Assembly: GCA_000002435.2 (NCBI GenBank)
Contig: CM018793.1
Length of the DNA: 64,000 bases
Origin: Giardia intestinalis
Taxonomy: Eukaryota
Strand: one strand, 5' to 3'
Numbering within the stretch: position 1 is the stretch's first letter; each line of letters begins with the position of its first letter. Positions 20,901 through 62,745 of the stretch are shown here, piece after piece. The notes beneath the pieces are model-generated. The model ran no database searches. It was not told where the DNA came from and worked only from the letters and a program-made list of their open reading frames with translations. Both the position numbers and the translations under genes were made by a program.

Positions 20901-22033
20901 TAATTAATAGCGAGCTCTCTTGCAACTCGGAGCTGTGGGGCTCAGTGTGGCAACGTTGTGTCTCCCCTATCCTTGTGTTCCAGTACACTAGAAACGAGTA
21001 CGATATCTTGCTCTTTGTGGCCCATACAATTTACTTGATGCTTTCACCGAATGCTCCATTGAACGCTCCATCAAATGAGTATAGCAGTACAGAGGTCGAA
21101 CTAACGCATCAGACCCTCCAGTCGGCATGCACTTCCTTCCTTTCTCCACTAGCCACAGATTGTTCTAGCATATCGTCATCCAAGCAGCATACCATTGTCT
21201 CAGCGTTCTTTGCATTGGTACTGCAATTAATGTTGCAAGGGCAACCCGGGGCCGAGGCAATCGCGCTCCTTTTTTCAGGCGTTATTGAGCCCATGCTCTT
21301 GGTGTCAAACATGTACCAGGTGAAGAGCTCCTTTAGCGCTAAGGAATATATTTATGATCCGCTTTTTGATTTACTAGTAGATAGGGTTGACACCACAACA
21401 TTTCTAAGTTCCACAAAAGAGCAGTCAGTGGCTCCACGCATCACAAGTGCAGCCACACTTCTCAGGTACACACTTGATACTTTGATTTCTGCTCAATTTG
21501 ATCTGCTTAACAATGATGCATTTGCTTTCTTCTGTTCTGTTCTAGAAGGACCTGTCTTAGAGCTCTTGAAGAACATATCTGAAACATACAGTTCTCATAA
21601 TAATTTACGAACCGAAGATTGTGAGGCAATTGCATCTGGGGCAGATTTAGTATTTGCGTTAGCAAGCTTACTGGCACCTGGTACAGAGAGCGAATGTTCC
21701 GCACCTGATCATTTCCTCAATAGATTGAAGCAATCGGATCACGATATTGGTAGAGTTCTTCGATTTACAGAACAAGGACTGGTTCAATGCATATCATTGC
21801 TCACCGTTCTCTCCCGCAAGCTTTCTCCAACGGACGAAACTATTTGCGCTGAATATCACCGCATATCTAACGAGCTCTTTTCAATACTAACCACCCTGCT
21901 AACCGCGGACCCATCTATAAAGACCATTTGCAAGGCTACTTTCAAGAAGCTTATAACGCTGGCAGTTCACAACGATTTAGAGATAAGAATGGCTCTAGTT
22001 TCATACTTGGACGCTTACGACGAAAAATTCTGA
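14930..22033 (+). CDS. Sec7-domain ARF guanine-nucleotide exchange factor (BIG/GBF-like), 2367 aa
   Basis: [21 protein letters not shown]...[32 protein letters not shown] matches the Sec7 catalytic motifs (F.[24 protein letters not shown]). Contains a poly-Q tract. ATG follows ggactttttttaaataaa. Confidence 0.9.
   Translation: [2367 protein letters not shown]
17696..17725 (+). repeat. CAA/CAG trinucleotide tract encoding [10 protein letters not shown] in the Sec7 ARF-GEF
   Basis: caacggcaacaacagcagcagcagcaacaa, in frame. Confidence 0.9.
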
Positions 22034-22079: not shown

Positions 22080-23297
22080 TTAAAAGAAGGACATGAGGTC
22101 GGCTATGTTGTTCGTCTGGGCTGGAGCTTGTGGTTGCATTTGGGGTTGGATTTGCTGAGTGGGCTGATGAACCGGTTGAGCGGGCATCGTTGAAGGGAAG
22201 GGTGCAGAACCCGGGGGCTGGTAGGACTGTGTCTGCATAGGCATCACTGCTTGTGGCTGCTGTTGTTGTTGTTGTTGTTGCTGCATCATGGCAAGCATCT
22301 GCTGCTGCTGAGCTATCATCTGCTGTTGATAAGCCTGGAGCTGCTCCGGGCTCATGGCCATCATCTGCTGTGGAGTGAGCATCTGAAGCTGCTGGATTGG
22401 AGCTGCTGGCTGAGCAGCAGGAGCCATCTGCTGGGTGGCAGGAGGCTGCTGCATACGCTGCATAGGGTTCGCGGGCATCGGAATCGCGCCCGCAGGCCTC
22501 GGCATGCCCATCGGCCTTTGCATGCCCATACCCATGCCCATGTTGGCGCCTGAACCCATTCCTGCTGTCATGGACGCCTGAGACATAGACTGCTGACTAG
22601 TATATGCAGAGATGGTGGCATTAGGGTCCTGAAGTCCCATAGTATGCATCGCCGGTTGCGATGTCATGGACATTGAGGCGTCAGCTGGTCTGGCCATGAA
22701 GCTTTCAGATTGTCCCTTTCCACGCATGGCAACGCTCTCTGACGAGGTGTAGATGGGAACCTTCTGCTTGACTGAAAAGTTGGCACCTATCCCGGAAGCA
22801 TTGTTCTGGACAACATCGGCATACCTTTGACGTGTATCTGCTGCATTACGACGCTTATCGTCGATATCGTCGGACATGGCCAACTCACGCACAGTTTCCG
22901 CGCGCTTCCTCACATTAATTCCACGATCAACGCCCTCCTCATCCTTGTACCGAAAGTCCTCGAGCGTCTGGATGACATTCAAGTGTGACTGAATGTCGCG
23001 GACGGTGTCAGGGCTGGCGTTGATGAGCAGGTGCTCAATGAGCAAAAGAGTCTTGTAGATCTGCTTCCAGCTCTTTGAGTTGGTGCTTGAAAGAAGTGAC
23101 CAGATAGTCTTCATCACGTTCGTTCGCGCAGAATGGTGCTCGCAATACCTCACGATGTCGTCCATATCTTCCGGGCTGGGTCCCCATGAAACCTTCGGGC
23201 TGGTGATTTGATTTACACGGTACTCCTCCTCTGACTGGCGCTTGAAGGTCCGATCAACCTTCCCAAAGAAGTTCTGCATGTTCTCCTTCGCAGGCAT
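22080..23297 (-). CDS. ENTH-domain epsin-like protein with Q/M/P-rich C-terminal tail
   Basis: The N-terminal 150 aa align to epsin ENTH: [21 protein letters not shown]...[48 protein letters not shown]. The C-terminus is PQ/M-rich with a Q11 run. Confidence 0.9.
   Translation of the reverse strand: [405 protein letters not shown]
22255..22287 (-). repeat. CAR trinucleotide tract encoding Q11 in the ENTH protein tail
   Basis: Plus-strand ctgctgttgttgttgttgttgttgctgc is CAG/CAA on the coding strand; a second shorter ctgctgctgctg follows at about 22301. Confidence 0.9.
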
Positions 23298-35741: not shown

Positions 35742-37160
35742 ATGGCACTTCTGGAAACGACAGGGGCTTTAGCGAGCAAGGTGGGCTTTGATGTATATTG
35801 CGCACTATGCAATGAAAAATTTTCGTACTCCATGAAATTACATAGTCTGTGCCAGCATGCGATTCTTTGTCATGGTATTCGGGTTTTCGAGGATCTATTG
35901 CGTTATTTTAATGGGAAACCCATACTTAGGGCTAGTGACCTTTTATGTGGCCAGTGCTATAACATCTACGGTCCAAACACGCGACACTTCTCAACTGAAC
36001 ATAAAATTAATGATAGGTATTACTGTAAGCTGTGTAATTTTACAACAACACGAGCATCTTTATACCAATTTCATAATCATATACTAAAATCTAATGCGAC
36101 ATGGTGTATCGGCTGCAATAAATTTTTAATGAGATCCAATTGGTTGTCGAGCCACTTCAGGATTTGTCCTGGAAGATTGCTTAGTTATAAGCGAGATTAT
36201 GAGATTGCCAATGACCATGCTTCCACAGAGATACACTCTAATACTATTGAGCTCAAACCTAAACCATATGTTTTTCCTAACTATGGTTGTGAGGAAACTT
36301 TACAGACTCTAAAAGGGCTTAAAGTCATTGACAAAGCCTGGCGCTCGCAACTGAAGTGGTGGTCATGCCGCCTCTGCTCCAAGCCTCCTTCTATTAAGTG
36401 TAGAGCATGCTCGACATCCTATTGTGCTACCTGTCAACAAGTCGATCCATACCTATGTACAAAGATGGTTTGCATGCGTTGCTACATGCACGCCTATTCT
36501 GTGTGGAATGATCCCGTGTTGGTATTTACTAAGGGGTTGTTCGGAATTCTTTCCGGATTTACTAGGCCGAGGAATTCGACGAGCCTGCGGAACAGCCGCG
36601 GACTAGCTATGCACGGACCTTACGCTGCCAAAGCGGGCGCAATTGTTTCAGAGGCTCTTGCGCTTGCCGTGCCGTTAGATAGACTTAATATTCCATACGG
36701 ACTTGAGCGCCTGGTTGAGGCCACACAGTACGATGATAATGGGATGCCATGCTTTCTAGCTGACTTCGGCCCTTATGTGTTTTTCGCGGGGAGCGTGATG
36801 GTTCCGCCTCTATATTTTGCTCGTGATTCTTCAGACCCTATGTGTAGGCTTGAAGTAACTCTGTTGGCAGGCTTAAACATTGGCTACCCTGTCGCTGTTG
36901 TTACTCTCCGTGCAGTCAAAGACTTTGCGATAGGACGAAACAAAGTTCGCGAAATTACTATTCGTCGCCAGTGCCTTACGGAATATCCATGGCGGGGTGC
37001 TGCGCGCTTCTGTCTCGATCCTATCTTAGCAATACCCCCTCAGCACAAACCTACAGAATTACCTCCAGATACTCCATGTCCCAGGAGCGCATTCAGTCAG
37101 TACTTTGCAGGGAAATCGCCGTTTGGAGAACCAAAAGAGTCTTTAGTCTCAATTCAATGA
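35742..37160 (+). CDS. multi-zinc-finger protein (C2H2-like fingers plus HIT/MYND-like Cys cluster)
   Basis: CALCNEKFSYSMKLHSLCQHAILCH; YYCKLCNFTTTRASLYQFHNH; CIGCNKFLMRSNWLSSHFRIC; and CRLCSKPPSIKCRACSTSYCATCQ...CMRCYMH. Confidence 0.7.
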   Translation: MALLETTGALASKVGFDVYCALCNEKFSYSMKLHSLCQHAILCHGIRVFEDLLRYFNGKPILRASDLLCGQCYNIYGPNTRHFSTEHKINDRYYCKLCNFTTTRASLYQFHNHILKSNATWCIGCNKFLMRSNWLSSHFRICPGRLLSYKRDYEIANDHASTEIHSNTIELKPKPYVFPNYGCEETLQTLKGLKVIDKAWRSQLKWWSCRLCSKPPSIKCRACSTSYCATCQQVDPYLCTKMVCMRCYMHAYSVWNDPVLVFTKGLFGILSGFTRPRNSTSLRNSRGLAMHGPYAAKAGAIVSEALALAVPLDRLNIPYGLERLVEATQYDDNGMPCFLADFGPYVFFAGSVMVPPLYFARDSSDPMCRLEVTLLAGLNIGYPVAVVTLRAVKDFAIGRNKVREITIRRQCLTEYPWRGAARFCLDPILAIPPQHKPTELPPDTPCPRSAFSQYFAGKSPFGEPKESLVSIQ

Positions 37161-39829: not shown

Positions 39830-40093
39830 TCCTATGGTACCCCTCTCTGAGCTGGCATCTCCGCCCTTCTGTTGAGTTGTATTCTGATTAAGCTGTCTTA
39901 CGCATCAGTTGTCGATCACACGGCCACGATGTTACTGTTCAATTCATATCTAACGCTGAACTATGACATCGTGCCAGCACATTACCAATTGTGTGAAGTA
40001 GTAAGGAGTAGTAAATCTTGAATGGCAATTTGTAGGCGTCGTCTTTGCAACTTGCTTCACAATTTGGTGGAGATCTGCAAGTTTTAAAACTTG

Positions 40094-41089
40094 ATGCCTC
40101 CTTGCATTTATGACGTACACACCCACACGTTTCTATGCCAATGTGCTGAAAAGGTAATGCCACGGGTGTACTTTAAACTGGCATCAGAGTTGGGATATAA
40201 AGGGATAGCGTACTGCTGCCACAACCCTTTCCCTGGAGACCTAGTAACTCCCCAGCACAGAATGGCTTATGAAGAGTTTGAGTTGTTCATGACAATGTAT
40301 CGACGAGAATGTGCATTTGCTCGGATTCACCTTCCAGAGTTGGACATTCTTCTTACGATGGAAGTTGACTACCTTCCCGATGCTCCACATCTCACTGAAG
40401 ATTTTATTGTGAGCCACCTTGGAGACTTCGACTGTGTCCTGGGGTCTCTGCACTATTACCAGGAAATTGAGAACGCGTGCTCAGACAAGGAAAAACAGAT
40501 TAAAGTGTACTTTGAAACCTGGGTACAGGCGCTCAGAACAGGATGGTTTCAAGTCATGGCGCACATGGATTTTATTAAGGTTGTTGTAGGCATGGAGTGG
40601 GTTCGCAGAAACAGGGAGGTGGTCCACAAGCATGCAGAAAGCGCCATCACTGAGATGGCGAAGTACAATCTGGCGCGAGAGAAGAAAGGCCTCGATCCGG
40701 TTGTGTTAGAGCTCAACACTAGTGGATCTCAGTATGGAGACGACTTTTTTCCAGCTGAGTCCCTTGTGGCTTATGCTGCCAAGATGAATATCCCTTTTTG
40801 CTTATCCAGTGACTGCCATCAGGCGTCAGAATTGGGTCGCAACTTCAAGGAAGCCCTTTGCTGCCTGAAGAAACATGGTGTCACAGAACTTTGTTACTTT
40901 AAAGAGCGACGGCTTCAGAGATATCTGCTCGAGGATGCCATTGCCACGTTCAAACCGTCCTGTGTGCCTGAGTTGGTCTCGAGAATCAAAGCCCTGAAAG
41001 GATATGATGTCTCTGTCAGCGAAGAGCTAGAGGAGATGAAGTGGAGCAGTCTGCTTGCACGCAGGTCTAATGAGAAGAGTAAAAGTTAG
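40094..41089 (+). CDS. PHP-domain phosphoesterase, histidinol-phosphatase (HIS2/HisJ)-like
   Basis: N-terminal YDVHTHTFLC (PHP D-x-H-x-H metal motif); later LELNTSGSQYGDDF and SSDCHQASELG parallel yeast HIS2 IEINTSALRK / SDDAHGVAQVG. The track start is TTG; ATG is at 40094. Confidence 0.75.
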   Translation: MPPCIYDVHTHTFLCQCAEKVMPRVYFKLASELGYKGIAYCCHNPFPGDLVTPQHRMAYEEFELFMTMYRRECAFARIHLPELDILLTMEVDYLPDAPHLTEDFIVSHLGDFDCVLGSLHYYQEIENACSDKEKQIKVYFETWVQALRTGWFQVMAHMDFIKVVVGMEWVRRNREVVHKHAESAITEMAKYNLAREKKGLDPVVLELNTSGSQYGDDFFPAESLVAYAAKMNIPFCLSSDCHQASELGRNFKEALCCLKKHGVTELCYFKERRLQRYLLEDAIATFKPSCVPELVSRIKALKGYDVSVSEELEEMKWSSLLARRSNEKSKS

Positions 41090-41096
41090 CCTAAAA

Positions 41097-41888
41097 ATGC
41101 AGGACATACTCACGAACGTGCTCACAAGCGAAGATATCGAGGCGGAGATGCGGCGTCTTCAGAGCGAGCTGGCAGAAGACACCAAGGAACTGATCCGCAT
41201 TCGAACGGAGTATCATCAGGCAGAGCAATGCCTGCAGAATTGGCAGGGCCGATTCGCTCTTGCTGAGGGGTTTCAATCTCACAGCCTAGCCCCAGAAAGA
41301 GACCACCGCTTCTTTATGGCTCCTATCGGATCGGTGGTCACGGATGACGCAGACCCGTCTCTGATTAATGTGACACTGCTCGACAGCTTCAAAGGCTCAT
41401 GTGCCAACTTGGAGTCCTGGGACAAGGCTTGGGTCATTGGTCTTGCTAAGCATAGATTCTCATCTAACCATTTCCCTGCGTCCGATTTACTAGCTCCTAG
41501 TTCAGACATTGTTTCCGGTCCTGTCGGGACTATCACTGTGTCAAACGTTGTGTTTAACTACACAGAGCCGTATAACAACTCTGTACATATATCAAAGTAC
41601 CTCATAGACAACGCAAGGACTGCAGGGTGCAGTGCTGTCACGGAAGATCAGGACCCTTTTACTCTCGGTGTCTCTCCTCAGCTTCCGTGCTATTTGGAGG
41701 CAGCTGGCGAACAAGCCATTCAGTATGAGCTTGTCAACCTTCTTGCAGACATTGTGGCTGTTGACCAGGAGACCGTTAGGCTGACCACCAGTGAGCCTCT
41801 TCCACCCGAATTTGTCCTTCTCGATCTCAAGGTCTATCACCCTTACATTGAGGGCCTTACTAACCTTCTAGAACACGAAAAGCAATAG
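41097..41888 (+). CDS. hypothetical protein (263 aa)
   Basis: The ORF track begins at a TTG (41055) overlapping the upstream gene. The first non-overlapping ATG is at 41097, 7 nt after the PHP gene stop and preceded by cctaaaa. Confidence 0.55.
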   Translation: MQDILTNVLTSEDIEAEMRRLQSELAEDTKELIRIRTEYHQAEQCLQNWQGRFALAEGFQSHSLAPERDHRFFMAPIGSVVTDDADPSLINVTLLDSFKGSCANLESWDKAWVIGLAKHRFSSNHFPASDLLAPSSDIVSGPVGTITVSNVVFNYTEPYNNSVHISKYLIDNARTAGCSAVTEDQDPFTLGVSPQLPCYLEAAGEQAIQYELVNLLADIVAVDQETVRLTTSEPLPPEFVLLDLKVYHPYIEGLTNLLEHEKQ

Positions 41889-41934
41889 CAATCCACATAA
41901 ATCACAGAACACCTTTTCAAAGAGCGGACTAAAT

Positions 41935-42471
41935 TTACTTGGGAGGCGCCCCAAAATTGAAGCCTCCCGGCGGGACGGAGGGGGTGCCTCCGGTCTTCTT
42001 CCCCAAACCAATCTTAATCTTTTCACCACTCTTGAGAGAGAAGTCTTGATTCACGACTATCTGCGCAGGGGGATGGGCCTTCCGATCCAATAGCTTTCCA
42101 TGATCTGCCAGGGCTGCTTGGAAAGCAAATGCGCCATCACGCTCCTGAAATCCTATTCCGATAAATGCCATCTTGGCTCCAGTCGGGTCTTTGACCACGA
42201 TGACAAAATAACGCGAAGAGTCCGACGCCTTCTCAACCACCGGAACTGTCCCCTTGTACTCTATGGGAAAGCGTGCTGCCTCTGCGCCTGTGTCTGGGGC
42301 CACAAGGGAGACGGAGCAGGCCTCCCCCTTGGAGATGATGCTGAGGTTGCCCTGGAAAATCACCCACTCACCAGGCCAATCAGCGCACTTAAACGAGCTT
42401 AAGTTGAGCGTCGGTGGAAGCTTGTATGCGACAACTTGGGTTACCGTTGCCAGCACTTGCTCGAACTCCAT
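41935..42471 (-). CDS. NECAP (adaptin-ear-binding coat-associated protein, PHear domain)
   Basis: [41 protein letters not shown] aligns with human NECAP1 [40 protein letters not shown]. The N-terminus ([18 protein letters not shown]) and [11 protein letters not shown] also match. Confidence 0.9.
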   Translation of the reverse strand: [178 protein letters not shown]

Positions 42472-42532
42472 GCCTTTTTATTTTTCATAAGAATGATTTA
42501 ATGTAAATTGCCATTGGAAACCGAAGTTTCTG
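42472..42532. promoter_or_regulatory. 61-nt bidirectional promoter region between NECAP (-) and proteasome beta7 (+)
   Basis: Divergent ATGs separated by cctttttatttttcataagaatgatttaatgtaaattgccattggaaaccgaagtttctg. AT-rich runs sit next to both starts. Confidence 0.4.
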
Positions 42533-43186
42533 ATGGCTTCTTTCTTGACTGGTGGAACAGTTGTCGCGGTGGCACACAAAGACGGTGTCCTGATGGCAGC
42601 TGATACTGTGCTGAACTATGGCAGCACGCGCAGGACTGACAATTACGAGCGTATCATTCCTGTCGGTACACACACACTCATAGGGTTTACTGGGGATGAG
42701 GCCGACTTTAAAGACAGTCTATATACCTTGAAGTCTATGCACCGCGAGGCCCGGTGCCACGGGACACCTCCCCCTAGCACGAGAGAGATCCACGGCTTCC
42801 TTGCCACACGTAACTACAGCTCTCGCTTGGAAATGGACCCAATTTACAATGGATACATTATTGGAGGATGCGAGCCAGGGGAGAGCCCTTACATCGGAGT
42901 CGTTGATCTGCGTGGGACTCAGTTTACAGCGAGCTTCTTTGCTACTGGAATGGGGAGACACTACGCTTTGCCTGTTTTGCGCGAAGGGTGGAAGCCAGGC
43001 ATCTCTAAGGACGAGGCGGTGGCCCTTCTGTTAGAAAGTCTTAAAACGCTAGCCTTCAACGATGCTGCTGCAGGATCTTCGTTCATAATCTGTGAGGCTA
43101 CAAGCGACGGAACGCACATTGGCCCTGTTCAAACCCTCGACCTCGACTGGTCGTCCGCTGCATACAAGGACTCGGCAGTAAACTGA
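42533..43186 (+). CDS. 20S proteasome beta subunit, beta7 (PSMB4/Pre4)-type
   Basis: TGGTVVAVAHKDGVLMAADTVLNYGSTRRTDNYERIIPVGTHTLIGFTGDEADF matches PSMB4 [54 protein letters not shown]. The catalytic Thr-Thr dipeptide is absent, as in non-catalytic beta subunits. Confidence 0.9.
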   Translation: MASFLTGGTVVAVAHKDGVLMAADTVLNYGSTRRTDNYERIIPVGTHTLIGFTGDEADFKDSLYTLKSMHREARCHGTPPPSTREIHGFLATRNYSSRLEMDPIYNGYIIGGCEPGESPYIGVVDLRGTQFTASFFATGMGRHYALPVLREGWKPGISKDEAVALLLESLKTLAFNDAAAGSSFIICEATSDGTHIGPVQTLDLDWSSAAYKDSAVN

Positions 43187-43476
43187 ACTTTACTTGCTAT
43201 CCAAGACCCGCAAGAGAACAAAACCATATCTATTCCGGCTCTTATTCTGGCTCAAGAGCGCCCCCGGGCGCTGAGGAGCTGGTGGTCTAAATTCCATGGA
43301 CCTGGTCATCAAAGACTACACCTTTTGGCCTACTGTTAGCTAACGGCAGCACATCTACAGGATGGACCAACGCCGTTGGAAGAAGGAAAACCACTAACCA
43401 TTTGAGGCCCAGGAACAAGCAGGTCGTAAACGAGGCAGACGACCGAGCAACGATGATGCAAAGGTCGACGGAAAGA

Positions 43477-43483
43477 ATTCACT
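43477..43483 (-). promoter_or_regulatory. putative polyadenylation signal AGTGAAT (AGTRAAY class) 4 nt after the alpha-tubulin stop
   Basis: The minus strand reads TAA GCG AGTGAAT. AGTRAAY is the reported Giardia polyadenylation signal consensus. Confidence 0.4.
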
Positions 43484-43486
43484 CGC

Positions 43487-44851
43487 TTAGTAGGCGTCGT
43501 CCTCCTCCATGTCCTCGCCCTCGCCGTCGCCAAGGGTCTCGGCGCCGATCTCCTCGTAGTCCTTCTCGAGGGCGGCGAGGTCCTCGCGGGCCTCGGAGAA
43601 CTCGCCCTCCTCCATGCCCTCACCGACGTACCAGTGCACGAAGGCGCGCTTGGCGTACATCAGGTCGAACTTGTGGTCCATGCGGGACCAAACCTCGGCG
43701 ATGGCCGTCGTGTTGGAGATCATGAGGCAGGAGCGCTGGACCTTCGCAAGGTCGCCGCCGGGGATGACGGTCGGGGGCTGGTAGTTGATGCCGACCTTGA
43801 AGCCTGTCGGGCACCAGTCGACGAACTGGATCGTGCGCTTCGTCTTGATGACCGCGATGGCCGCGTTGACGTCCTTCGGGACGACGTCGCCGCGGTACAT
43901 CATGCAGCACGCCATGTACTTGCCGTGGCGGGGGTCGCACTTGACCATCATGTTCGCCGGCTCGAAGACGGAGTTGGTGAGCTCGGCGACGGAGAGCTTC
44001 TCGTGGTACGCCTTCTCGGACGAGATGATGGGCGCGTACGAGCAGAGCGGGAAGTGGATGCGCGGGTACGGGACGAGGTTCGTCTGGAACTCCGTCAGGT
44101 CGACGTTGAGGGCGCCGTCGAAGCGGAGCGAGGCTGTGATCGAGGAGATGCACTGGGCAATCAGGCGGTTGAGGTTCGTGTATGTCGGGCGCTCGATGTC
44201 GAGGTTGCGGCGGCAGATGTCGTACATGGCCTCGTTGTCGACCATGAAGGCGCAGTCGGAGTGCTCAAGCATCGAGTGCGCGGCGAGGATCGTGTTGTAC
44301 GGCTCGACGACGGCCGTCGCGATCTGGGGCGAGGGGTAGACGACGAACTCGAGCTTGGACTTGCGGCCGTAGTCGACGCTCAGGCGCTCGAGGAAGAGGG
44401 ACCCGAAGCCGGCGCCCGTGCCTCCTCCGAAGGAGTGGAAGATCAGGAAGCCCTGGAGCCCGGAGCAGTTGTCTGCGAGCTTGCGGACGCGGTCGAGGAC
44501 GAGGTCGACGATCTCCTTGCCGATCGTGTAGTGCCCGCGGGCGTAGTTGTTGGCGGCGTCCTCCTTGCCGGAGATCAGTTGCTCGGGGTGGTAGAGCTGG
44601 CGGTACGAGCCCGCGCGGACCTCGTCGACGACCGTGGGCTCGAGGTCAACGAAGACCGCGCGCGGGACGTGCTTGCCGGCGCCCGTCTCCGAGAAGAACG
44701 TGTTGAACGCGTCGTCGCCGCCCCCGATCGTCTTGTCGGACGGCATCTGGCCGTCGTGCTGGATCCCGTGCTCGAGGCAGTAGAGTTCCCAGCAGGCGTT
44801 GCCGATCTGGACTCCGGCCTGGCCGATGTGGACCGAGATGCACTCACGCAT
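43487..44851 (-). CDS. alpha-tubulin
   Basis: 454-aa product [31 protein letters not shown]...[11 protein letters not shown]...[40 protein letters not shown]...EEDDAY is canonical alpha-tubulin. Third codon positions are GC-saturated. Confidence 0.97.
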
Positions 44852-44896
44852 TTTTATTTCCGCCCGTCCAGACTCTGGAATTTGCTGATTTGAATT
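44852..44896 (-). promoter_or_regulatory. alpha-tubulin upstream region (45 nt between upstream gene stop and tubulin ATG)
   Basis: Coding-strand reads ...gaattcaaatcagcaaattccagagtctggacgggcggaaataaaa ATG. The A-rich initiator is flush with the ATG, and the whole promoter must fit in 45 nt or extend into the upstream ORF. Confidence 0.45.
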
Positions 44897-47800
44897 CTAA
44901 ATTGTTTTCTGCTCCAGAAGAAGCTCGACGCTCTCTGGAGAAAAGTTGACGAGAGAGGCCTCGGTCGGGGTGTAGTAGATTCTAACACCATGCCTGCTGC
45001 TCCCTGCCTTACTAGGAACAAATCCGATAAACTGGAATACGAGCAAAACTAATTCCACAGGGGTCATATTGTGTAGAGTGATGTATGAGCCAGCGCATCG
45101 AGCCAGCACCTTCTCAAAGATCAAAAACCATCCCGGAGTTACATCTTCTCCAATTCCAAGAAAGGCTGGTTTCGCGACCTCATTGGTTCTCATTACAGGG
45201 ACCTTGTCTGATACGAGCACGTACCCCTGGGGTGACCTAAACGACAAGATAGTCTCTCTGCCCATTAGCTTGAATTGCTCTGTAGCATGCAGGGCGTCAC
45301 AGATCTCAAATAGTGCCCGTAAAAGCTTGGCATTGGCACTATGTTTAGCTGCAAGATCCTCCACGTCCACAGACGGTTTCATAGGATCAGGCATGCCATC
45401 CAGTCGCGAAGCAGGGGTGTTAATGATAATGTTCTTGTGGATAACTGGGCCTAATGGCCGAGCGGACTTCTTGGCCTCACCCTGTTTGCCCTTGCGTGTT
45501 CCATCCTGTTGCTGGATCGGAGGACACGCACTAAGGAGCTTCTCAGCGCTCAGGGGTTGTTCATACGATACCATGTGAAGCGAAGAAAGAGAAACCATGC
45601 ACGCAGATACGAGGTCCTTTTGGACTCCTTCGTCAAAGGCCCGTATTTCCAATTCCAAACCAACCTCTTTGGATGGCTTCCCATCGGCAGCTAAGCATGC
45701 GCATAGGAGAGAGTATGCTGGGAGAGGATCCATCCAGTAATAGATACCATCATAAGGGATGTCAATAAGGCAATCCAGCTGACAAAGAGGGGTTTGCTCA
45801 GGCCCCTGTTTCTTGGTTGTTGAGAACGTCTTTGACCCGCTCTTAAGAGATGCCAGCTCACCGCGTTCTGTCTGATCCTTCATTGTTTGGTCATTTTCTT
45901 TTGCTTTTAGTAAGTGTAGCTCCTCTCCTTTAGAAATCAATAGTTTGCGAGTCAGCTGGTTGAGGTACGAAGCCTTGAGACGAGGTATGCTCAGCTCTTT
46001 CTGCGGAGACAAAGAAGCAAAGATATGCACACCATCACTGTATAGCCAACACCCGTTTCCCTCGTCTTCTCGATAGCCATCAGCTAATAAGGTCAAGACG
46101 CCTGTGGAAACAGGATGCCCTGGAAGACTCTCATGCCCAGCGAAATCAGCATACAGATCCGATGACGGATCCAGCCTTATGTCCGACTGCTGCGAAGAAT
46201 ACTGCTCAACATGTCCAATGTCAAAGCAGGAACGCAGGTCTTGCGCCTGCTGTAGAATAAGAGCATTATTGCCCCGCGTGCTGGGACGAGGCGGTGCAAC
46301 AGCCAAATTCTCTGTCTCTGGAAGGTCAATGTCGTCGTAAAGCTCAAGGAAATCAAGCCGTTGGTGTACCTTTGTAGAGCCATGCGACTTTGCTCGGCTA
46401 GGAGTGAAGCGGCCGCTATTTAAGCGCACATTTTCCACATTTTCCTGAGACAAGCCAACAAAGGGAGCGCCCTGTGGGGACAGCTGAGTAGGATCCCTTT
46501 GCTTTGTAGCAGGAGCATCACCGAGGGTAGTAAGGTTAAGGGTCGATGTTTTGGCAGAATCAGAGGGGCAGAGACTAGTTTTTATGCTTGAAACCGTCTG
46601 CCCATTGTGCTGCTTGCTCGTATCTGTTACACACGACACGCCAGAAAGCGTAGTATGCATGTTGGAATTATCGACGATTGGGGCTGAAAACAGTGCGGCG
46701 GCCAAGTCAAGCTCAGCAGGCCGAACAGCTTTCAGCGTGACGTACTCACAAAGAGATAGGTGGACGCATAATAAGCATCTCTGCAAGACGGCCTCAAGAA
46801 AAGAAATGGATGTTTGGCGTTCCTTCATGGACGCGTTCTGTTCTTGGGATAGCTTGGACGTGAAGCCGGTGGTAAGTGCCACTTGAAAGGCATCGCCCAG
46901 TGTGTGGGTCATCGAAAGAAATTGCAGAGGCACAACAACTTCGCCGAGAGAAATGTAATTGGGAAAAGGAACAGGTCGAAAGACAAGACACTGGGTGGTA
47001 CCAATCTGCACGGTGGCCAGATAGCAAACTTCTGCCGGTCTGGCGAACGACCCGTTGCTAGTTGTGCTCACAGCATTCGGTAAAGTGTTCCTTACAACTG
47101 GAATTAGATCTAATGAGGTGGAAACGTGTCTCGTTCCAAAGGTGAGCCACCGTGGGTCAACAAGAGTTGCCAAGCACTGCTTCATAGAAGCGTTCTCCAA
47201 CGACCCTTCTCTTGGGGGAGGAGGTTCTGAAGCGGAAGACGGAGGAAGCCCATCTGGTCGTTTTCCCGAGGTAGTCCTGGGTAACTTAGACGCGCCTTCA
47301 ACTTCACCATGTAAAGCTTGCTTTTCCTTAGGCACTTTCATAGTTGAATTTTCTACCACGGCTTGGTTGTCAGCACTAGTCGCTGTGGTGGTTATGATGG
47401 ATTTTGTGGTTAATAGAAGCCCTGGTTTCTTAAGCTCTGATATCTCTTGCAGAAGCGATGCAAGTCGATTGACCCCGGGTGAGCCGCACTCAAACCTCTC
47501 ATCAACTATTATTTGGCCAGTGCTGTCTTGCAAGAGCTCAAGGGTCAACTCGAAGGACAGAGGCATTGCTCTGAATGCTTCTACTAAGGTACTCACGTTA
47601 TTCTGCTCGTTCTGCTCACCTATCTTGGGCTGGCGTTGACTGCTCACAGCTGTTAACAGTTGAGCCTTTATAATCCAGACTGTCGATGAAACGGGTGGAA
47701 AGTCTAACACCTTCATTGCTTTCTGTGCATCATTGTCACTGAATCGTGTCAAATTGAAATATGCCATGCCAGAGTGGTCTTTGTTAGATAGTGGCGCAAA

Positions 47801-50440
47801 TGGATGTGGACGTCTCAGAGCAATCAAGTATTGCTTGTCAAAATTGGCAACTTGAGGAAGCCGTATCCCACTATGAACATGAAACGCGGTTGCTCGGGAG
47901 ACAAACGCCAACGAAACACAGCAGTATCGAGACTTGCACGGGATCTCACCACTGAGAGATACCACATAGCCTAAGGCAGCGTAGCCCAGCTGAGGAATCA
48001 TTTCGTAGACAACAATTTTAGTGTCCGTCTCTAGATCTTCTGAAGACCAAACAGGAACGAGTGCATCCGGCTCAGAAAAGATGTATGAATCGAAACCGGA
48101 CGACTTTGAAATCAGTCCGAGCTCTAATGGGAGCACTGGCGGTATTGATTCCGCCTTGCTTGCCTGTGAAGTAATGGCTTGCGGTTCGGGTTCTTGCACG
48201 TGCTGCACATTCTTCGCTGATCCAGCACGTGGATTGCTGCTTGTCTTTGTAGTTGGCTGTTGGGGCGTAGGAGGTTTCAATGGCTGGGCGGTGGTCACTG
48301 CCTGCTTATCCCAATAGATTATGGATCCAAAGCAAGAGTAAGAGGGCTTTTTGAGGCTGGGTTCTAAAAATTGAAGCTTGTGTGTTGGAAGATCTAGAGT
48401 AGCTATTTTGACATACTCTTGTTCAATTGTAACTCCTGACATAAAATCTTTGGAGGATATCGAGGTAGCAGAGAAAATAAAGTTGAGGATAGCAGGTGAT
48501 ATGATGGGATATTTCGGAGAAGCGGATTTATCGGGCTCTAGCTCGTCGACCTTAGGGTCATTCACAAATATGAAAGGCGACCCTCGGGGAGTCACCAGTT
48601 GAACTGCTCGTGCCGTTGGTCGCACAAGCTGATCTAAATCCGCGACTTCAGACAAGTCAGAAAGAGCTGCTGATCGACTTTCCAATCTACTATCACCCGT
48701 GACACAGCTTCTTACGGCATCCTGACGTTCTGTACAAGCCGTCCCAGTTCTTGTTGTTGTTGTTGTTGTTGTTGTTGTTGCTGTCGTAGATGGCTCGTTG
48801 CCAAACGCCATCTGTGTATTGCTGCGTAGCGGAGACTCGGGTACGTTATGCAACGCTGTAGCCTCTACTCTTAAACCGAGCTGAGAAGAATAGGAGGGCG
48901 GAGGCAACGGAACATCTGTTAGTATCGGTCGTGTGAACCTATCCGCTGTAGTAACATCAGTCCTATTATCAGCAAAGCATAAGGTTGCTGCTTTTCTGCG
49001 CTCTTCAAGCATTTTGCTCTGGGTCTTAAGAAAACGGTAACAATATTCAGCTGAGTCTCTATCGTAAAGCTCTCCGATGATAGAGCAAGCATCTGTGTAT
49101 GTTATGTACTTGTTGTTCACCGTCAATACGCTGGCTGGATTTGGAGGCTCCCCCATCTCATCTCCAAGGACAACAGACACGGCAGTGTACCCAGCCGGTG
49201 CAACTGGCGCATACAGATATGTGTATGTCACTTGCTGAGGCTCCCTTGCTGCCCTGTGTGCCGCAGCCCTGGCATCATCCAGAGTGGTGCTTTCCGATGC
49301 ATATGAGATGGATGACTCACGATCATTAAGAGCTCCTTTGCTGCTATTCTTCTCTGGAGGAGCAAAGCTACTGGGCATAACGGCTACCAAGTTAAATCCT
49401 ATGCAAGGCACAAAGATCTCGTGAACGAGCTCAGGAGTGATGATAGAAGCGCTTGCATCAGCGTGGTTGGAATCACTCTCTTGGGAGAGCATTGCCAAGA
49501 CAGAGTCGTGTGGGACCACGGAGTTTTTAGTGCCTACACTATCGCCAAAGCGTGGGCCTCGTGCGGGCTTCACCAAGTACACTGTTGTTAGGTCATCATC
49601 TATCTCTGGAAGGTCATCAATGAAGCGGCTTGTAAGGCCAGATTTGGAAAAGCGGCTCATATTCATACCACCGGCCATACTAGCCGAGGAAAGGCGGATG
49701 GATCGGGACGAACCTATCTTAGGAGTTGCGATAGAGCGAGTGGACTTGGAATCAGTGTCACTTATGACTTTGTACAACGTAAGCCTAAGTAGGACATGCC
49801 TATCTACCGCAGGGTCCACCCGGCGGCTCTTTGGTCTCGGAATGTAGTCAAATAGTCGCGAAATCACTGGGATGTCTCTTACAACAGCCTGTCTTTGGAG
49901 CGAAAGGAGGAACATAGGATGAAGAACTGGAAGATAGTTGTTCACGCTGAAGCTGAAGTAATGAGAGCGAATTAGGCTGAAATTTGGAGTTATCGGAGAG
50001 CGAAGTATAAGATACGAGAAGGAGTTGATGTCATCTTCTTGTGGTTGAGCCGCAAACTCAGACCGTATGCAGTAAAAGTTGTCTGGGGGGTGCTCGGTAA
50101 TTGAGACGCAAAGTCCGAGCGCTGTGAAGCCGGAAGGCGGCACAGGAAGCCATATGCGCAGGAAAGAATTCGTCACGGTTCCCAATAAACGTGCTTCAAA
50201 GAGAAGACGAAATGATAACGGCTTAGTGTACATAGTTCCATAAGTTTGGCTGATAGGGTTTATTATCAGTATTTGAGTACCAATTGTATCGCTAGGATCG
50301 ACTCGAAGAAGGTCATAGAAGTAGCCAGAACCACGCGGAAGAACCGGTCTATTGAAGCACAAAATCTGATCCGAAAGAGACCCTTCAATTCTTCCTATCT
50401 CAGTAGATATGTTAGTCAATGTAAAAGACGCAGTGTACAT
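44897..50440 (-). CDS. giant hypothetical protein (1847 aa) with poly-Thr tract
   Basis: Continuous 5.5-kb ORF from ATG (cat at 50438-50440); its stop lies 45 nt upstream of the tubulin ATG. Contains T9 encoded by (ACA)n and Ser/Pro-rich linkers. Confidence 0.8.
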   Translation of the reverse strand: MYTASFTLTNISTEIGRIEGSLSDQILCFNRPVLPRGSGYFYDLLRVDPSDTIGTQILIINPISQTYGTMYTKPLSFRLLFEARLLGTVTNSFLRIWLPVPPSGFTALGLCVSITEHPPDNFYCIRSEFAAQPQEDDINSFSYLILRSPITPNFSLIRSHYFSFSVNNYLPVLHPMFLLSLQRQAVVRDIPVISRLFDYIPRPKSRRVDPAVDRHVLLRLTLYKVISDTDSKSTRSIATPKIGSSRSIRLSSASMAGGMNMSRFSKSGLTSRFIDDLPEIDDDLTTVYLVKPARGPRFGDSVGTKNSVVPHDSVLAMLSQESDSNHADASASIITPELVHEIFVPCIGFNLVAVMPSSFAPPEKNSSKGALNDRESSISYASESTTLDDARAAAHRAAREPQQVTYTYLYAPVAPAGYTAVSVVLGDEMGEPPNPASVLTVNNKYITYTDACSIIGELYDRDSAEYCYRFLKTQSKMLEERRKAATLCFADNRTDVTTADRFTRPILTDVPLPPPSYSSQLGLRVEATALHNVPESPLRSNTQMAFGNEPSTTATTTTTTTTTRTGTACTERQDAVRSCVTGDSRLESRSAALSDLSEVADLDQLVRPTARAVQLVTPRGSPFIFVNDPKVDELEPDKSASPKYPIISPAILNFIFSATSISSKDFMSGVTIEQEYVKIATLDLPTHKLQFLEPSLKKPSYSCFGSIIYWDKQAVTTAQPLKPPTPQQPTTKTSSNPRAGSAKNVQHVQEPEPQAITSQASKAESIPPVLPLELGLISKSSGFDSYIFSEPDALVPVWSSEDLETDTKIVVYEMIPQLGYAALGYVVSLSGEIPCKSRYCCVSLAFVSRATAFHVHSGIRLPQVANFDKQYLIALRRPHPFAPLSNKDHSGMAYFNLTRFSDNDAQKAMKVLDFPPVSSTVWIIKAQLLTAVSSQRQPKIGEQNEQNNVSTLVEAFRAMPLSFELTLELLQDSTGQIIVDERFECGSPGVNRLASLLQEISELKKPGLLLTTKSIITTTATSADNQAVVENSTMKVPKEKQALHGEVEGASKLPRTTSGKRPDGLPPSSASEPPPPREGSLENASMKQCLATLVDPRWLTFGTRHVSTSLDLIPVVRNTLPNAVSTTSNGSFARPAEVCYLATVQIGTTQCLVFRPVPFPNYISLGEVVVPLQFLSMTHTLGDAFQVALTTGFTSKLSQEQNASMKERQTSISFLEAVLQRCLLCVHLSLCEYVTLKAVRPAELDLAAALFSAPIVDNSNMHTTLSGVSCVTDTSKQHNGQTVSSIKTSLCPSDSAKTSTLNLTTLGDAPATKQRDPTQLSPQGAPFVGLSQENVENVRLNSGRFTPSRAKSHGSTKVHQRLDFLELYDDIDLPETENLAVAPPRPSTRGNNALILQQAQDLRSCFDIGHVEQYSSQQSDIRLDPSSDLYADFAGHESLPGHPVSTGVLTLLADGYREDEGNGCWLYSDGVHIFASLSPQKELSIPRLKASYLNQLTRKLLISKGEELHLLKAKENDQTMKDQTERGELASLKSGSKTFSTTKKQGPEQTPLCQLDCLIDIPYDGIYYWMDPLPAYSLLCACLAADGKPSKEVGLELEIRAFDEGVQKDLVSACMVSLSSLHMVSYEQPLSAEKLLSACPPIQQQDGTRKGKQGEAKKSARPLGPVIHKNIIINTPASRLDGMPDPMKPSVDVEDLAAKHSANAKLLRALFEICDALHATEQFKLMGRETILSFRSPQGYVLVSDKVPVMRTNEVAKPAFLGIGEDVTPGWFLIFEKVLARCAGSYITLHNMTPVELVLLVFQFIGFVPSKAGSSRHGVRIYYTPTEASLVNFSPESVELLLEQKTI
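48751..48780 (-). repeat. (TTG)10 microsatellite = (ACA)n coding poly-Thr
   Basis: Perfect ttgttgttg x10 on the plus strand, read as ACA (Thr) in the 1847-aa minus-strand ORF (TTATTTTTTTTTRT). Confidence 0.9.
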
Positions 50441-50511
50441 GAGTGTTTTGGGACGAGTGCCAAAAGAAAAAATCAGCTTTTTAGATTTTGCGTTGAGGAG
50501 AAAGCGTGGAT

Positions 50512-52773
50512 ATGACTGCCCCCGCTTTGCGCCTCGTTCATGCCTACGACTCTGGGAACGCCATCGACTTTAATATCTCAGATCCCTTCACTCACCCCGA
50601 CCATCAGATTCTAGCGCGGGAGATTTCTTTTAGGTGCAGACACGACAACGAAGGAACGCCTCATCAAGTCAGCTTCAAATCCTGGTTTAATTTTTGCATC
50701 TTCTCACCCTCGTCCCAACCAATATCAGAGCAACTACTCAGCTTTCAATGGCTCAATCCACCTCCAACTAAAAAGCTATTGATCCATGGGTACAGACCTG
50801 TGTTTCGCTTCTTAGACGCCCATCACAAGCCCCTATTGGTCAAAGTGCTTGAGGCACAGGATGCAGGAGGGACCGACTATGAAGTCCTCTTGCCATCACA
50901 TAGAGAGGTACTCTATAGGCCACTTGATACTCGCTGCATGGGAGGAGGTACTGGCAATGCTGATAAGAACTCCCAGTCTTTGCTGTTTTCGATCCGTGTC
51001 CCTAAGGGGACACATGCAGTCCAGGTCAGTCACAGCTATCCATATCCCCTCAACGAGGTTTATGCGCGGCTGGACAGCATTACTAAGCCGTGGGTGACAG
51101 AAAGAGTTCCTTTAAAGGGCAACGTTTGGCTCTACAAGGTCTGCAAGAACGAGGCGTCCAAGCAAAAACCCATCATTTATATCAGCGCACGCTGTCACCC
51201 TGGAGAGGCGCCTGGAAGCTACGTGCTTGACGGGCTTCTGAGCTCGTTGGAGGTACTTCTAGACATGTTTCAATGTTGGATTGTCCCCGCTATAAATGCA
51301 GAAGGGATTCGGGTCGGAAACTATCGTGCTGATACCAAAGGAAACAACTTAAACAGATGCTATAGCAAGTCGGAGTATCCTGACCTGATCACAGCTGACA
51401 TTATCAGAATGGTCAATCAGACCGAGTGTAACCCGGGCTATGTGCCGGATGTCTATGGCCCACTTAAGGACCTCATGGACCCTATTCTCAAGACAAAGTA
51501 CTTTGAGCAAATGGGCACATTTTCGGGGAGTAGTGACGTCGATGACGAGCGCTGCCAAGATACTACCGGTATCAGAACATTAACCTTCACACAGAACTCA
51601 CAGGGCCAAAAACGGAGAAAGTGTAGCGATAGGATGATAGAGTCAGATGAAAGTAATTCCGAGGACACCTCAGATGTGGATATTAGTGTTGAGAGTAGGC
51701 CCTCTGCCACGACGTCAACATCGTCGTTAGAAAACGCCACTGCATTTGAGATCTCTCTTTCCAACGGAAAGCAGAAGACCCGAAGAATAGTCAAGCCGAT
51801 TAAGAAGGCAAAGGAGCTAGCAGATCATAGATCCACCTCATCTGATCAAAGCGATAAGGATTCCAGGCACAGTACGGCCAAAAAGAACAGTTCTTACTAT
51901 CCTTCGAAGGTGAAAGTGAGTGCTCCATCTGCATCTAAACCTCAATTCAGCGGAAGGCTCCCGCCGCGAAGCGCAGGTGGTGACAGCAGGAGATTTCCTG
52001 CTGAGCAATCACCACATTCTCTCGTGCCCCTCACAAATAGCTCTTCGTCCCCAACTACATTGTTCTCCAACAAGGACAAAGCAGAACACGCATATCCGCT
52101 ACACCAGCCCACGGCCGGGTCTCAGCTCATTAAGTACAGCAGAAAACCCCAAATAATATTCTGCCTGGACATTCACTCGCATGCTAGCATACCAGATTGC
52201 TTTCTATTTGGTAATTCTGTCTTTGAAAACGGGCTTCCAAGCGTCCCCAAGGATAAGCTCTTTTTGGGTCAACTGAGGAACATCCTGTTTGTAAGTTACC
52301 TCGCCGGCCTCGACTCCACATTCAATGTCAGCAAGTGTGACTTCAAGCCTGACTCTATGACCAAGGTGGACAGGGCAGGGGAAACGTTTGAGTATACCAT
52401 GAGAGTGGGTCTTTATGCAGAGACAACGCTCCCCACAGTGTATTGCTTTGAAAGCCACTATTATCGAAAGTCTCGCGATTATGCCAAGAAGCCGTTCACG
52501 GTCCAGGACTTTCTCTCTATGGGAGCAAATTTAGCCAAAGCAATTCAAAGCTACTACGAATTCACTCCCGATAAAGCGCTCACATACCTCAGACGATTAG
52601 AGCACAACATACACATCGGTTACAGTGCACAAAAGATGCTTGCAGAACTCCGCCAAGCTGCCGGCGGAGAGTATCTTGTGATGCTTTATAGGGCTATATA
52701 TGACCAGCTGGATTATCAAGTCAACGGGGCACTGCGACAGGCAAGGCAACAGGACAACAAAGTAGCTAAGTAG
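50512..52773 (+). CDS. M14 zinc carboxypeptidase of the cytosolic carboxypeptidase (CCP/Nna1, tubulin deglutamylase-like) type
   Basis: ARCHPGEAPGSY (H-x-x-E zinc ligands), INAEGIRVGNYRADTKGNNLNRCY (N-R substrate-binding, parallel to CCP NPDG...DLNR) and FCLDIHSHASIPDCFLFG (third zinc His). The track start is GTG; ATG is at 50512. Confidence 0.75.
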   Translation: MTAPALRLVHAYDSGNAIDFNISDPFTHPDHQILAREISFRCRHDNEGTPHQVSFKSWFNFCIFSPSSQPISEQLLSFQWLNPPPTKKLLIHGYRPVFRFLDAHHKPLLVKVLEAQDAGGTDYEVLLPSHREVLYRPLDTRCMGGGTGNADKNSQSLLFSIRVPKGTHAVQVSHSYPYPLNEVYARLDSITKPWVTERVPLKGNVWLYKVCKNEASKQKPIIYISARCHPGEAPGSYVLDGLLSSLEVLLDMFQCWIVPAINAEGIRVGNYRADTKGNNLNRCYSKSEYPDLITADIIRMVNQTECNPGYVPDVYGPLKDLMDPILKTKYFEQMGTFSGSSDVDDERCQDTTGIRTLTFTQNSQGQKRRKCSDRMIESDESNSEDTSDVDISVESRPSATTSTSSLENATAFEISLSNGKQKTRRIVKPIKKAKELADHRSTSSDQSDKDSRHSTAKKNSSYYPSKVKVSAPSASKPQFSGRLPPRSAGGDSRRFPAEQSPHSLVPLTNSSSSPTTLFSNKDKAEHAYPLHQPTAGSQLIKYSRKPQIIFCLDIHSHASIPDCFLFGNSVFENGLPSVPKDKLFLGQLRNILFVSYLAGLDSTFNVSKCDFKPDSMTKVDRAGETFEYTMRVGLYAETTLPTVYCFESHYYRKSRDYAKKPFTVQDFLSMGANLAKAIQSYYEFTPDKALTYLRRLEHNIHIGYSAQKMLAELRQAAGGEYLVMLYRAIYDQLDYQVNGALRQARQQDNKVAK

Positions 52774-61707: not shown

Positions 61708-62745
61708 ATGTCTCTAGATTTTACCGGCATCTTCCACCAGCTCCTTGGAACCGAGAAGCCGGAAGACGTCAGGGTATCTCCGTCTCCCATGCATAATGCT
61801 TTCTCTACTGCCCGTAGAGAAGTCCTTTCCTTGCGAGATATAATTGTTCAAAACTCGAGCAGCTATACCGCCACGACTCTCTCTTCCAACACACGTTCCG
61901 TGGAAGGCATGCCATTTACTGATGAAGAGTGTGCTTTATTTGATGCACGAATTCTGACCATTTTCACTCATATAAATAGTCTTGTGGGGAATATCCTCAA
62001 AGAACTCAAGACATATGCAGCCAAAGATTCCACTGGCGATGAATTTGATGCAGAAGAGAATGCTCTGGAAGTTCTAGAGCGCCAGCTCCGACGAGACAAT
62101 AGCAAAAATGCGATCCAGTACTTTGAGGGCGTCGGCAACGTCCTTCTTGCTCAGGTTACGCAGATATTTGAAGACTATGGTTCTCTCCGCGCCAAGCGCC
62201 GTGCTGTGGTATCATCAGACTATCTCCGTGAGCGGTCGCAACGGCATGTTTATGCGCTGAATATGCAGAGAGATCCTTCGACGAGCACGCCTGCTGTATC
62301 TAATGCCACACAAGAGGGGTCTGGGCGTGAGGGGGCACCCGTGGACCATGCTAAAGGATTGACAGGCATATGGGCAACAGTCCATGCAATGAATGACGAG
62401 GATCATGCTCCACAGGTAAGTCAGAGCCACATGGGCACCACTAAGGTGCAGGCCACTAGGCGGATCTTGCCGTCTCTCATGGAAGAGCTAGACATTGTCC
62501 GGCGCACAGAACAAACAGCCCATGAAATTCAGTCTCTGAACGCTCTTTTTGCTGAAAAGGTCATCGAGCAATCTGAACAAATCGATAGAATATATGCAGT
62601 CACTTTCGAAACGTCAGGAACGCTGGACAACGCTAACAAGTACCTTAAGAAGGCCGCTAAGCGGCTCCGAAGCAGCACAAAAATAACCATAGTCCTCATG
62701 TGCCTTGCAATTTTCTGCCTGCTCTTTCTAGATTATATCAACTGA
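61708..62745 (+). CDS. Qa-SNARE (syntaxin-like), tail-anchored
   Basis: The C-terminal SNARE heptads IQSLNALFAEKVIEQSEQIDRIYAVTFETSGTLDNANKYLKKAAKRL carry the central Gln (QSEQIDRI). They are followed directly by a single TM anchor ITIVLMCLAIFCLLFLDYIN at the extreme C-terminus. Confidence 0.75.
   Translation: MSLDFTGIFHQLLGTEKPEDVRVSPSPMHNAFSTARREVLSLRDIIVQNSSSYTATTLSSNTRSVEGMPFTDEECALFDARILTIFTHINSLVGNILKELKTYAAKDSTGDEFDAEENALEVLERQLRRDNSKNAIQYFEGVGNVLLAQVTQIFEDYGSLRAKRRAVVSSDYLRERSQRHVYALNMQRDPSTSTPAVSNATQEGSGREGAPVDHAKGLTGIWATVHAMNDEDHAPQVSQSHMGTTKVQATRRILPSLMEELDIVRRTEQTAHEIQSLNALFAEKVIEQSEQIDRIYAVTFETSGTLDNANKYLKKAAKRLRSSTKITIVLMCLAIFCLLFLDYIN

Follow-up and report, generated by a model that had tools for sequence, protein, structure and literature searches.

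The 64,000-nucleotide stretch of Giardia intestinalis DNA analysed here (assembly GCA_000002435.2, contig CM018793.1; hereafter the window) contains an alpha-tubulin gene and, separated from it by a single other gene, a gene for an M14-type carboxypeptidase. Tubulin deglutamylation by cytosolic carboxypeptidases (CCPs) is textbook knowledge, and an initial annotation of the window had proposed that the enzyme is a candidate tubulin deglutamylase possibly paired in function with the neighboring gene of its substrate. The analysis presented below places the enzyme in the CCP family, closest to CCP5, and attributes its proximity to alpha-tubulin most likely to an accident of gene-sized duplication at an inversion breakpoint. 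The features on which this account depends are listed in window coordinates.

43476..44908, minus strand: alpha-tubulin duplicated unit, comprising the gene, 57 bp ahead of its ATG and 11 bp beyond its stop codon
43487..44851, minus strand: alpha-tubulin coding sequence, 454 aa, identified by Pfam and PDB matches
44897..50440, minus strand: intervening gene, hypothetical GL50803_00114751, 1847 aa, exact match to XP_037902313.1
50441..50511, no strand: divergent intergenic spacer of 71 bp separating GL50803_00114751 from the carboxypeptidase gene
50512..52773, plus strand: CCP5-type cytosolic carboxypeptidase coding sequence, 753 aa plus stop
50512..51111, plus strand: CCP N-domain, residues 1-200, supported by hhalign, the AlphaFold2 model and invariant columns
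51112..51516, plus strand: catalytic domain part 1, residues 201-335, with HPGE, INAEG (261-265), R272 and N281/R282 (NLNR)
51517..52128, plus strand: disordered insertion, residues 336-539, with a predicted local distance difference test score (pLDDT) below 50
52129..52491, plus strand: catalytic domain part 2, residues 540-660, with H555, R631 and E647
52492..52770, plus strand: C-terminal helical region, residues 661-753, AlphaFold2 helices 664-752

Both genes lie where the initial annotation had put them, 43487-44851 (-) and 50512-52773 (+), and its distance of 5.6 kb agrees with an ATG-to-ATG separation of 5,661 bp (5.66 kb). It had also described alpha-tubulin as two genes away; the carboxypeptidase is the second gene along, and exactly one gene lies between. 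All three genes are long open reading frames (ORFs) without introns. The alpha-tubulin ORF matches the Pfam models Tubulin (E 6e-61) and Tubulin_C (E 2e-52), and alpha-tubulin chains account for all of its top matches in the PDB (E about 1e-285). An acidic tail is present as previously claimed, except that the first residue quoted for it is D and not E, and the gene-encoded chain ends in -DDAY. The protein encoded by GL50803_00114751 carries a Pfam Vps62 match near its N-terminus (residues 68-136, E 9e-12) and is unrelated to tubulin chemistry. This 5.5-kb gene and the carboxypeptidase are transcribed divergently across the 71-bp spacer, such that transcription of the carboxypeptidase is directed away from alpha-tubulin. 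The carboxypeptidase itself is an exact match to XP_001706842.1 / KAE8305637.1 / UniProt A8BIH6, annotated as 'Metallocarboxypeptidase, M14 family protein' in G. intestinalis WB. Its product had been given as 754 aa, a figure that holds for codons including the stop; the protein has 753 aa when counted from the first ATG, and the mechanical ORF opens two codons upstream at a GTG.

Two further observations concern these genes. Long ORFs rich in Arg, Gly and Val overlap alpha-tubulin in other frames, at 43634-44893 (+), 43620-44153 (-) and 43402-43725 (+); these are artefacts of the high G+C content of the alpha-tubulin gene (0.55 vs about 0.48 for the window) and not genes. The Vps62-like protein is 1847 aa long in G. 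intestinalis vs 917 aa in its Giardia muris orthologue (locus L001, 7234-9987), and the two align over the N-terminal half only, about 870 residues.

Domain architecture, active site and subfamily of the carboxypeptidase

The N-terminal 200 residues form a CCP N-domain. Comparison by hhalign matched them to CCP5-type N-domains with a probability of 98.6% (E 8.5e-16) and to CCP2/CCP6 N-domains with a probability of 96.1% (E 2.8e-9). Motifs of the FESGN, WFYF and YPYTY types occur directly ahead of the catalytic domain as YDSGN (residues 12-16), WFNF (58-61) and YPYPL (176-180), and they are conserved in an alignment of 10 sequences comprising Giardia orthologues, paralogues and a lobster CCP5-like protein. 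The AlphaFold2 model built from this alignment (mean pLDDT 64.6, predicted template modeling score 0.67) shows an N-domain rich in strands, with an inserted helix/loop, specific to Giardia, at about residues 103-150. Block-mean pLDDT is mostly 70-94 in the folded parts, with some dips, and 75-94 for most of the C-terminal region, with lower values at both of its ends. By inspection the protein is without a signal peptide or a pro-segment of the carboxypeptidase A/B (CPA/CPB) type, since the first strand already occupies residues 7-9 and the first N-domain motif begins at residue 12, which leaves no space for either.

Human CCP5 is the best-matching solved structure in sequence and fold searches alike. 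A phmmer search against all PDB sequences returned human CCP5 first (E 1.4e-13), aligned in two stretches at residues 219-288 and 545-650, while bacterial CCP-type enzymes scored between E 8e-7 and 0.24. The structure prediction that the initial annotation had suggested led to the same protein: Foldseek against the PDB placed seven CCP5 entries on top (E 1e-16 to 1e-18, best 1.4e-18, TM score about 0.65 on the target), followed by bacterial CCPs at E 1e-9 to 1e-11, whereas CPA, CPB and TAFI reached only E 0.01-0.1. Two other families were considered and rejected. A succinylglutamate desuccinylase/aspartoacylase assignment rests on an AstE_AspA_cat score of 22.3 bits against a cut-off of 25, confined to the HPGE region, and a secreted CPA/B-type enzyme is contradicted by the presence of the CCP N-domain and the weak Foldseek matches to CPA and CPB.

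The HPGE, INAEG, NLNR and DIHSH motifs on which the CCP assignment was originally based are all present, and eight residues are invariant in the 10 sequences: H229, E232, R272, N281, R282, H555, R631 and E647. HPGE at 51196-51207 supplies the zinc ligands H229 and E232, and DIHSH at 52168-52182 supplies the third, H555; the three align to CCP5 H252, E255 and H434, equivalent to His69, Glu72 and His196 in CPA numbering. R272, N281 and R282 align to CCP5 R303, N312 and R313 (Arg127 and Asn144/Arg145 of CPA). The catalytic E647 (codon 52450-52452, within YCFESHY) corresponds to Glu270 of CPA and aligns to CCP5 position 516, which is Ala in the PDB chains and Glu in CCP5-type homologues (YTLECNY). 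R631, the equivalent of Arg255, lies 16 residues ahead of E647, the same spacing as from R500 to E516 in CCP5. The roles of Arg255 and Glu270 are taken from previous work, in which Arg255, positioned at the bottom of the S1' pocket, sets acidic specificity and is conserved in all six mammalian CCPs (Tort et al., PMC4230590). The CCP character first proposed for this protein is thus upheld by the CCP5 rankings in phmmer and Foldseek, the N-domain alignment and the invariant active-site residues; a secreted CPA/B type is excluded, and the catalytic Glu and Arg residues are intact.

The two halves of the catalytic domain are separated by a 204-residue insertion rich in Ser/Thr and Lys/Arg, containing 58 S+T, 30 K+R and 25 D+E. 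The interval from NLNR to the third His is 274 residues in the Giardia protein and several hundred in many relatives, including the lobster CCP5-like protein; measured from NR to HxH, the shortest CCP5-type proteins have 35-43 residues, most often 37, and others have up to 668. The insertion therefore occupies a site that is also used by other CCP5-type proteins, animal CCP5s among them. Identity to the orthologue of another G. intestinalis lineage (P0002) is 93% over residues 540-660 and 62% over the insertion, and the corresponding values for the G. muris orthologue are 70% and 19%, a pattern of sequence identity that indicates purifying selection on the catalytic core. An octapeptide within the insertion, NATAFEIS (about residues 407-414), is kept in G. 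intestinalis orthologues and has the counterparts VAFEIP in G. muris and LAFEID in the protein P0073 described below; it may be a short linear binding motif. Both paralogue groups of Giardia CCPs, as well as P0073 (aligned to residue 736), share the C-terminal helical region, about 90 residues long, in which Y726, Q732, D734, Q736, G739 and R742 are near-invariant; the region gives no alignment with the lobster CCP5-like protein.

Which CCP is the Giardia enzyme closest to? An exhaustive profile search of 1.84 billion representatives yielded 6,623 relatives. Among the 146 best of those outside Giardia, every motif of the set could be placed in 127, and these 127 all carry, with individual departures, a CCP5-type signature (GHYRTD..G.NLNR, DLH[GA]HA[ST]K and YTLECNYN) that is common to the lobster CCP5-like protein and human CCP5. 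The corresponding segments of the Giardia carboxypeptidase are GNYRADTKGNNLNR, DIHSHASI and YCFESHYY, which retain R-[TA]-D, NLNR, H-x-H-A-S and E-x-x-Y and depart at several other signature positions. The ten closest relatives outside Giardia are entered by their sources as 'hypothetical protein' or with no name, so that annotation gave no subfamily assignment. For comparison, CCP2 and CCP6 references were retrieved with CCP1/4-, CCP6- and CCP2-like baits, and only database proteins so named by their source were used; CCP1, CCP3 and CCP4 did not occur among the 120 matches listed. By phmmer, all four Giardia CCPs tested gave better scores with CCP5-type proteins than with either CCP6 or CCP2. 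A neighbor-joining tree (431 columns, 200 bootstraps), a distance method applied here without CCP1, CCP3, CCP4 or bacterial sequences and with a long Giardia branch, separates CCP2 plus CCP6 from CCP5-type plus Giardia proteins with 100% bootstrap support and joins the Giardia proteins to P0073, also at 100%.

The searches run here retrieved two Giardia CCP paralogues. Each has a G. muris orthologue, and the CCP duplication therefore predates the split between G. intestinalis and G. muris. A further profile search of a 5.8-billion-protein set with insert-trimmed Giardia and Homarus cores, at a strict E of 1e-5, returned Giardia proteins only, including three extra paralogue sequences.

Outside Giardia, the nearest relative is P0073, a protein of 945 aa from a 5-kb Logan contig, which shows 41% identity over the second part of the catalytic domain and carries the otherwise Giardia-specific features FEAHYYR, HAHASIPN and the C-terminal helices. 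Its richness in Ala, Arg, Gly and Pro suggests a G+C-rich genome, and it comes perhaps from another metamonad. In two firefly gene models, one from Abscondita terminalis (P0074, 2168 aa) and one from Lamprigera yunnana (P0121, 1509 aa), a segment covering the end of the CCP N-domain and the first catalytic part (query residues about 142-305) is present in three or four partial copies in tandem; either tandem genes were joined in error or the expansion is an unusual one, as is probable.

An active CCP need not act mainly on tubulin, and its principal substrates could be other glutamylated or acidic-tailed proteins, or its specificity could have shifted. One indication in this direction comes from a second basic residue, Lys/Arg250, that aids acidic specificity in mammalian CCPs (PMC4230590). 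Its position (K495 in CCP5) aligns by HMMER to F626 of the Giardia protein, which falls in a low-confidence loop (619-627, pLDDT below 50), and in the Giardia paralogues an R or K is found at a distance of one or two positions from the equivalent site. The lineage-specific C-terminal helices and the 204-residue insertion could likewise direct the enzyme to other partners, and non-tubulin CCP substrates are reported elsewhere, for example actin, suggested for Leishmania CCP5A (PMC6502457). However, the equivalents of Arg255, Asn144/Arg145 and Arg127 are all conserved, and tubulin is the dominant known substrate of the CCP family. Deglycylation in particular is rejected as a role, since the deglycylases described for Giardia, which act on 14-3-3, belong to M20, a different family (PMC4230590). 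We consider a mainly non-tubulin enzyme to be unlikely on balance.

Origin of the alpha-tubulin adjacency

How did an alpha-tubulin gene come to lie beside a candidate tubulin-modifying enzyme? The orthologous CCP locus of G. muris (L001) provides the reference, since it retains, in collinear order, 11 of the 13 consecutive genes found at 34.6-62.7 kb of the window. At that locus, no tblastn match to alpha-tubulin was found within 10 kb on either side. A block of four genes, encoding a PHP-domain protein, a 277-aa ORF, a DUF1681/NECAP-like protein and a proteasome subunit, is inverted relative to G. muris.

40091-43186: inverted block, corresponding to 3913-6911 of L001

Alpha-tubulin sits exactly at the inversion breakpoint, adjoining the Vps62-like gene. 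A second alpha-tubulin locus (L003, isolate DH), flanked by a WD40 gene on one side and a V-ATPase E gene on the other, encodes an identical protein and matches the copy in the window by blastn with 98.8% identity over 1,434 bp; the similarity ends sharply at the borders of the unit. The upstream end of the duplicate overlaps the last codons and stop of the 1847-aa Vps62-like ORF. The most likely history is that the four-gene inversion arose after the split from G. muris and that the 1,434-bp duplicate brought its own 57-bp upstream region with it. Short-read assemblies break or turn chimeric exactly at the alpha-tubulin copy: the contigs of L002 and L004 end there, and L009 has flanks that are mixed. 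The region contains a second lineage-specific gene, a 472-aa ORF at 35742-37160 (+) with no Pfam match and no counterpart at the syntenic G. muris locus.

The initial annotation had read the proximity as a possible functional pairing for the ventral disc and flagella. On such a reading, deglutamylase and substrate genes would be kept close by co-regulation or selected linkage. The genes are indeed only 5.66 kb apart with a single gene between them, and their order is also kept in isolate GS of assemblage B; moreover, by a rough estimate based on gene counts, the chance of this exact pair being adjacent is well under 1%. That estimate is tempered by the fact that any tubulin-related neighbor would have lent itself to the same argument. 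The remaining evidence points away from pairing. The alpha-tubulin gene is absent from the syntenic G. muris locus, the copy in the window has its own 57-bp upstream region and is separated by a 5.5-kb gene from a CCP that is transcribed away from it, and a second locus encodes the same alpha-tubulin protein. The paralogous CCP adjoins mTOR in both Giardia species and has no tubulin nearby, and beta-tubulin would be an equal substrate for the enzyme. Clustering of enzyme and substrate genes is not known to be an established feature of eukaryotic genomes. Thematic neighbors also arise easily in this window, as five membrane-traffic genes lie within about 48 kb, a grouping that is probably coincidental.

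14930-22033: Sec7 (ArfGEF)
22080-23297: ENTH
41935-42471: DUF1681/NECAP-like
44897-50440: Vps62-like
61708-62745: SNARE-domain

For these reasons, a functional pairing is very improbable, and the claim is not supported. The adjacency is most likely the accident of a gene-sized duplication at an inversion breakpoint; as a by-product of duplication, proximity is therefore not usable as evidence of function.

Proposed function and comparison with known systems

Membership in the CCP (Nna1-like, M14D) family, the fold, the intact active site and purifying selection on the core, as read from sequence conservation, are directly established. We infer substrate and chemistry from knowledge of the family, and for a CCP it is reasonable to suppose that it deglutamylates tubulin. 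The interpretation that probably applies is that the protein is a zinc carboxypeptidase, closest to CCP5, that acts in trans as a deglutamylase, with the alpha-tubulin gene beside it by historical accident. By analogy with the residues aligned above, H229, E232 and H555 would hold the zinc ion and E647 would serve as general base, while N281/R282 and R272 would anchor the C-terminal carboxylate of the substrate and R631, at the bottom of the S1' pocket, would select an acidic residue. Such an enzyme would be a cytosolic exopeptidase that takes off C-terminal acidic residues. The main chain of alpha-tubulin ends in -DDAY and could therefore not be trimmed by a CCP, so that action would be expected on added glutamate side chains; those of beta-tubulin would be equally good substrates. 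CCP5 removes gamma-linked branch-point glutamates from tubulin tails (PMC13279043), and by this analogy the likeliest target would be the branch-point glutamate of glutamylated tubulin tails.

Several observations weigh against parts of this interpretation. A Pfam search, one of the checks that had been proposed for the protein, gave Peptidase_M14 (PF00246) only 16.1 bits against a gathering cut-off of 21.6, over residues 205-285, and the CCP N-domain model PF18027 had no match in the scan; the N-domain emerged in the hhalign comparison instead. The sub-threshold M14 score is attributable to the predicted-disordered insertion that splits the domain, and both catalytic halves are recovered by full-length structure and profile comparisons. 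NAEG stands in place of the canonical NPDG, and Phe aligns at the Lys/Arg-250 position. When animal CCP5 alone is considered, the phmmer margin over CCP6 is small (50.6-51.8 vs 48.8 bits), and the tree has the restricted sampling and long Giardia branch noted above. With respect to the adjacency, the order of a big ORF, CCP, Vps62-like gene and alpha-tubulin is kept in assemblages A (WB) and B (isolate GS), and the adjacency is therefore not very recent. The sharp borders of the duplicate and its position at the breakpoint suggest, but do not formally prove, gain in G. intestinalis rather than loss in G. muris. Finally, a literature search found no activity, localisation or knock-down study of a Giardia CCP or deglutamylase.

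The sub-threshold Pfam score, the NAEG substitution and the large insertion that divides the catalytic domain could also be read as signs of a catalytically dead pseudo-enzyme or scaffold retaining the CCP fold, but not one zinc ligand or catalytic residue differs in either paralogue group or either Giardia species, the catalytic core has a much lower rate of change than the insertion, and many CCP5-type proteins, animal representatives among them, carry insertions at this position, so this is the least credible of the alternatives.

The M14 metallocarboxypeptidase annotation was already known from the WB reference, and the paralogue had already been named after Nna1. What is added here is the CCP5-like assignment with an intact active site and an explanation of the alpha-tubulin proximity as a by-product of duplication. 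The two CCP5-type paralogues are obvious eraser candidates for the Giardia tubulin code. If Giardia had no other deglutamylases, the removal of branch-point as well as chain glutamates from the hyperstable disc and the eight axonemes would fall to one or both of them, and the C-terminal helices and the insertion, with its conserved NATAFEIS-like motif, might act as targeting devices, a speculative extension that we hold to be unlikely. Co-regulation of the alpha-tubulin copy with the neighboring CCP in G. intestinalis is much less likely.

Comparison with known systems places the deglutamylase interpretation in context. Secreted M14A enzymes (CPA/B) are of the signal peptide/pro-segment type, and only about 225-254 residues align with them. 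The bacterial M14D CCPs (Pseudomonas aeruginosa 4a37, Shewanella 3l2n, and Burkholderia 3k2k and 4b6z) are compact proteins of about 375-405 aa without the insertion or the C-terminal helices. Within Giardia, the paralogue called 'Nuclear ATP/GTP-binding protein' (P0009 in G. intestinalis, P0007 in G. muris) has the same architecture, invariant residues, C-terminal helices and insertion site and falls in the same clade, at 33% identity over the full length and 36% in the best local alignment; it differs in its locus beside mTOR, its shorter insertion and DLNR in place of NLNR.

Human CCP5/AGBL5 (PDB 8v3m-8v3s), a tubulin branch-point deglutamylase, shares about 23% identity with the Giardia protein and is built in the same way, with an N-domain from residue 1 followed by the M14 domain, the same set of zinc and catalytic residues, and an insertion between NLNR and the third His. 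The two differ in several motifs, the Giardia protein having NAEG, YCFESHYY and DIHSHAS where CCP5 has NPDG, YTLECNYN and DLHGHASK, and K495 of CCP5 aligning to F626. The Giardia N-domain has an extra helix/loop, and conserved C-terminal helices replace the long disordered tail of CCP5. The nearest functional precedent for a protist dependent on CCP5-type enzymes is found in Leishmania major, another flagellated parasite with two CCP5-like paralogues, to which the Giardia pair, known from sequence, can be likened by description. There, CCP5A and CCP5B are both deglutamylases, such that overexpression of either lowers the GT335 signal and CCP5B also lowers that of polyE (PMC6502457).

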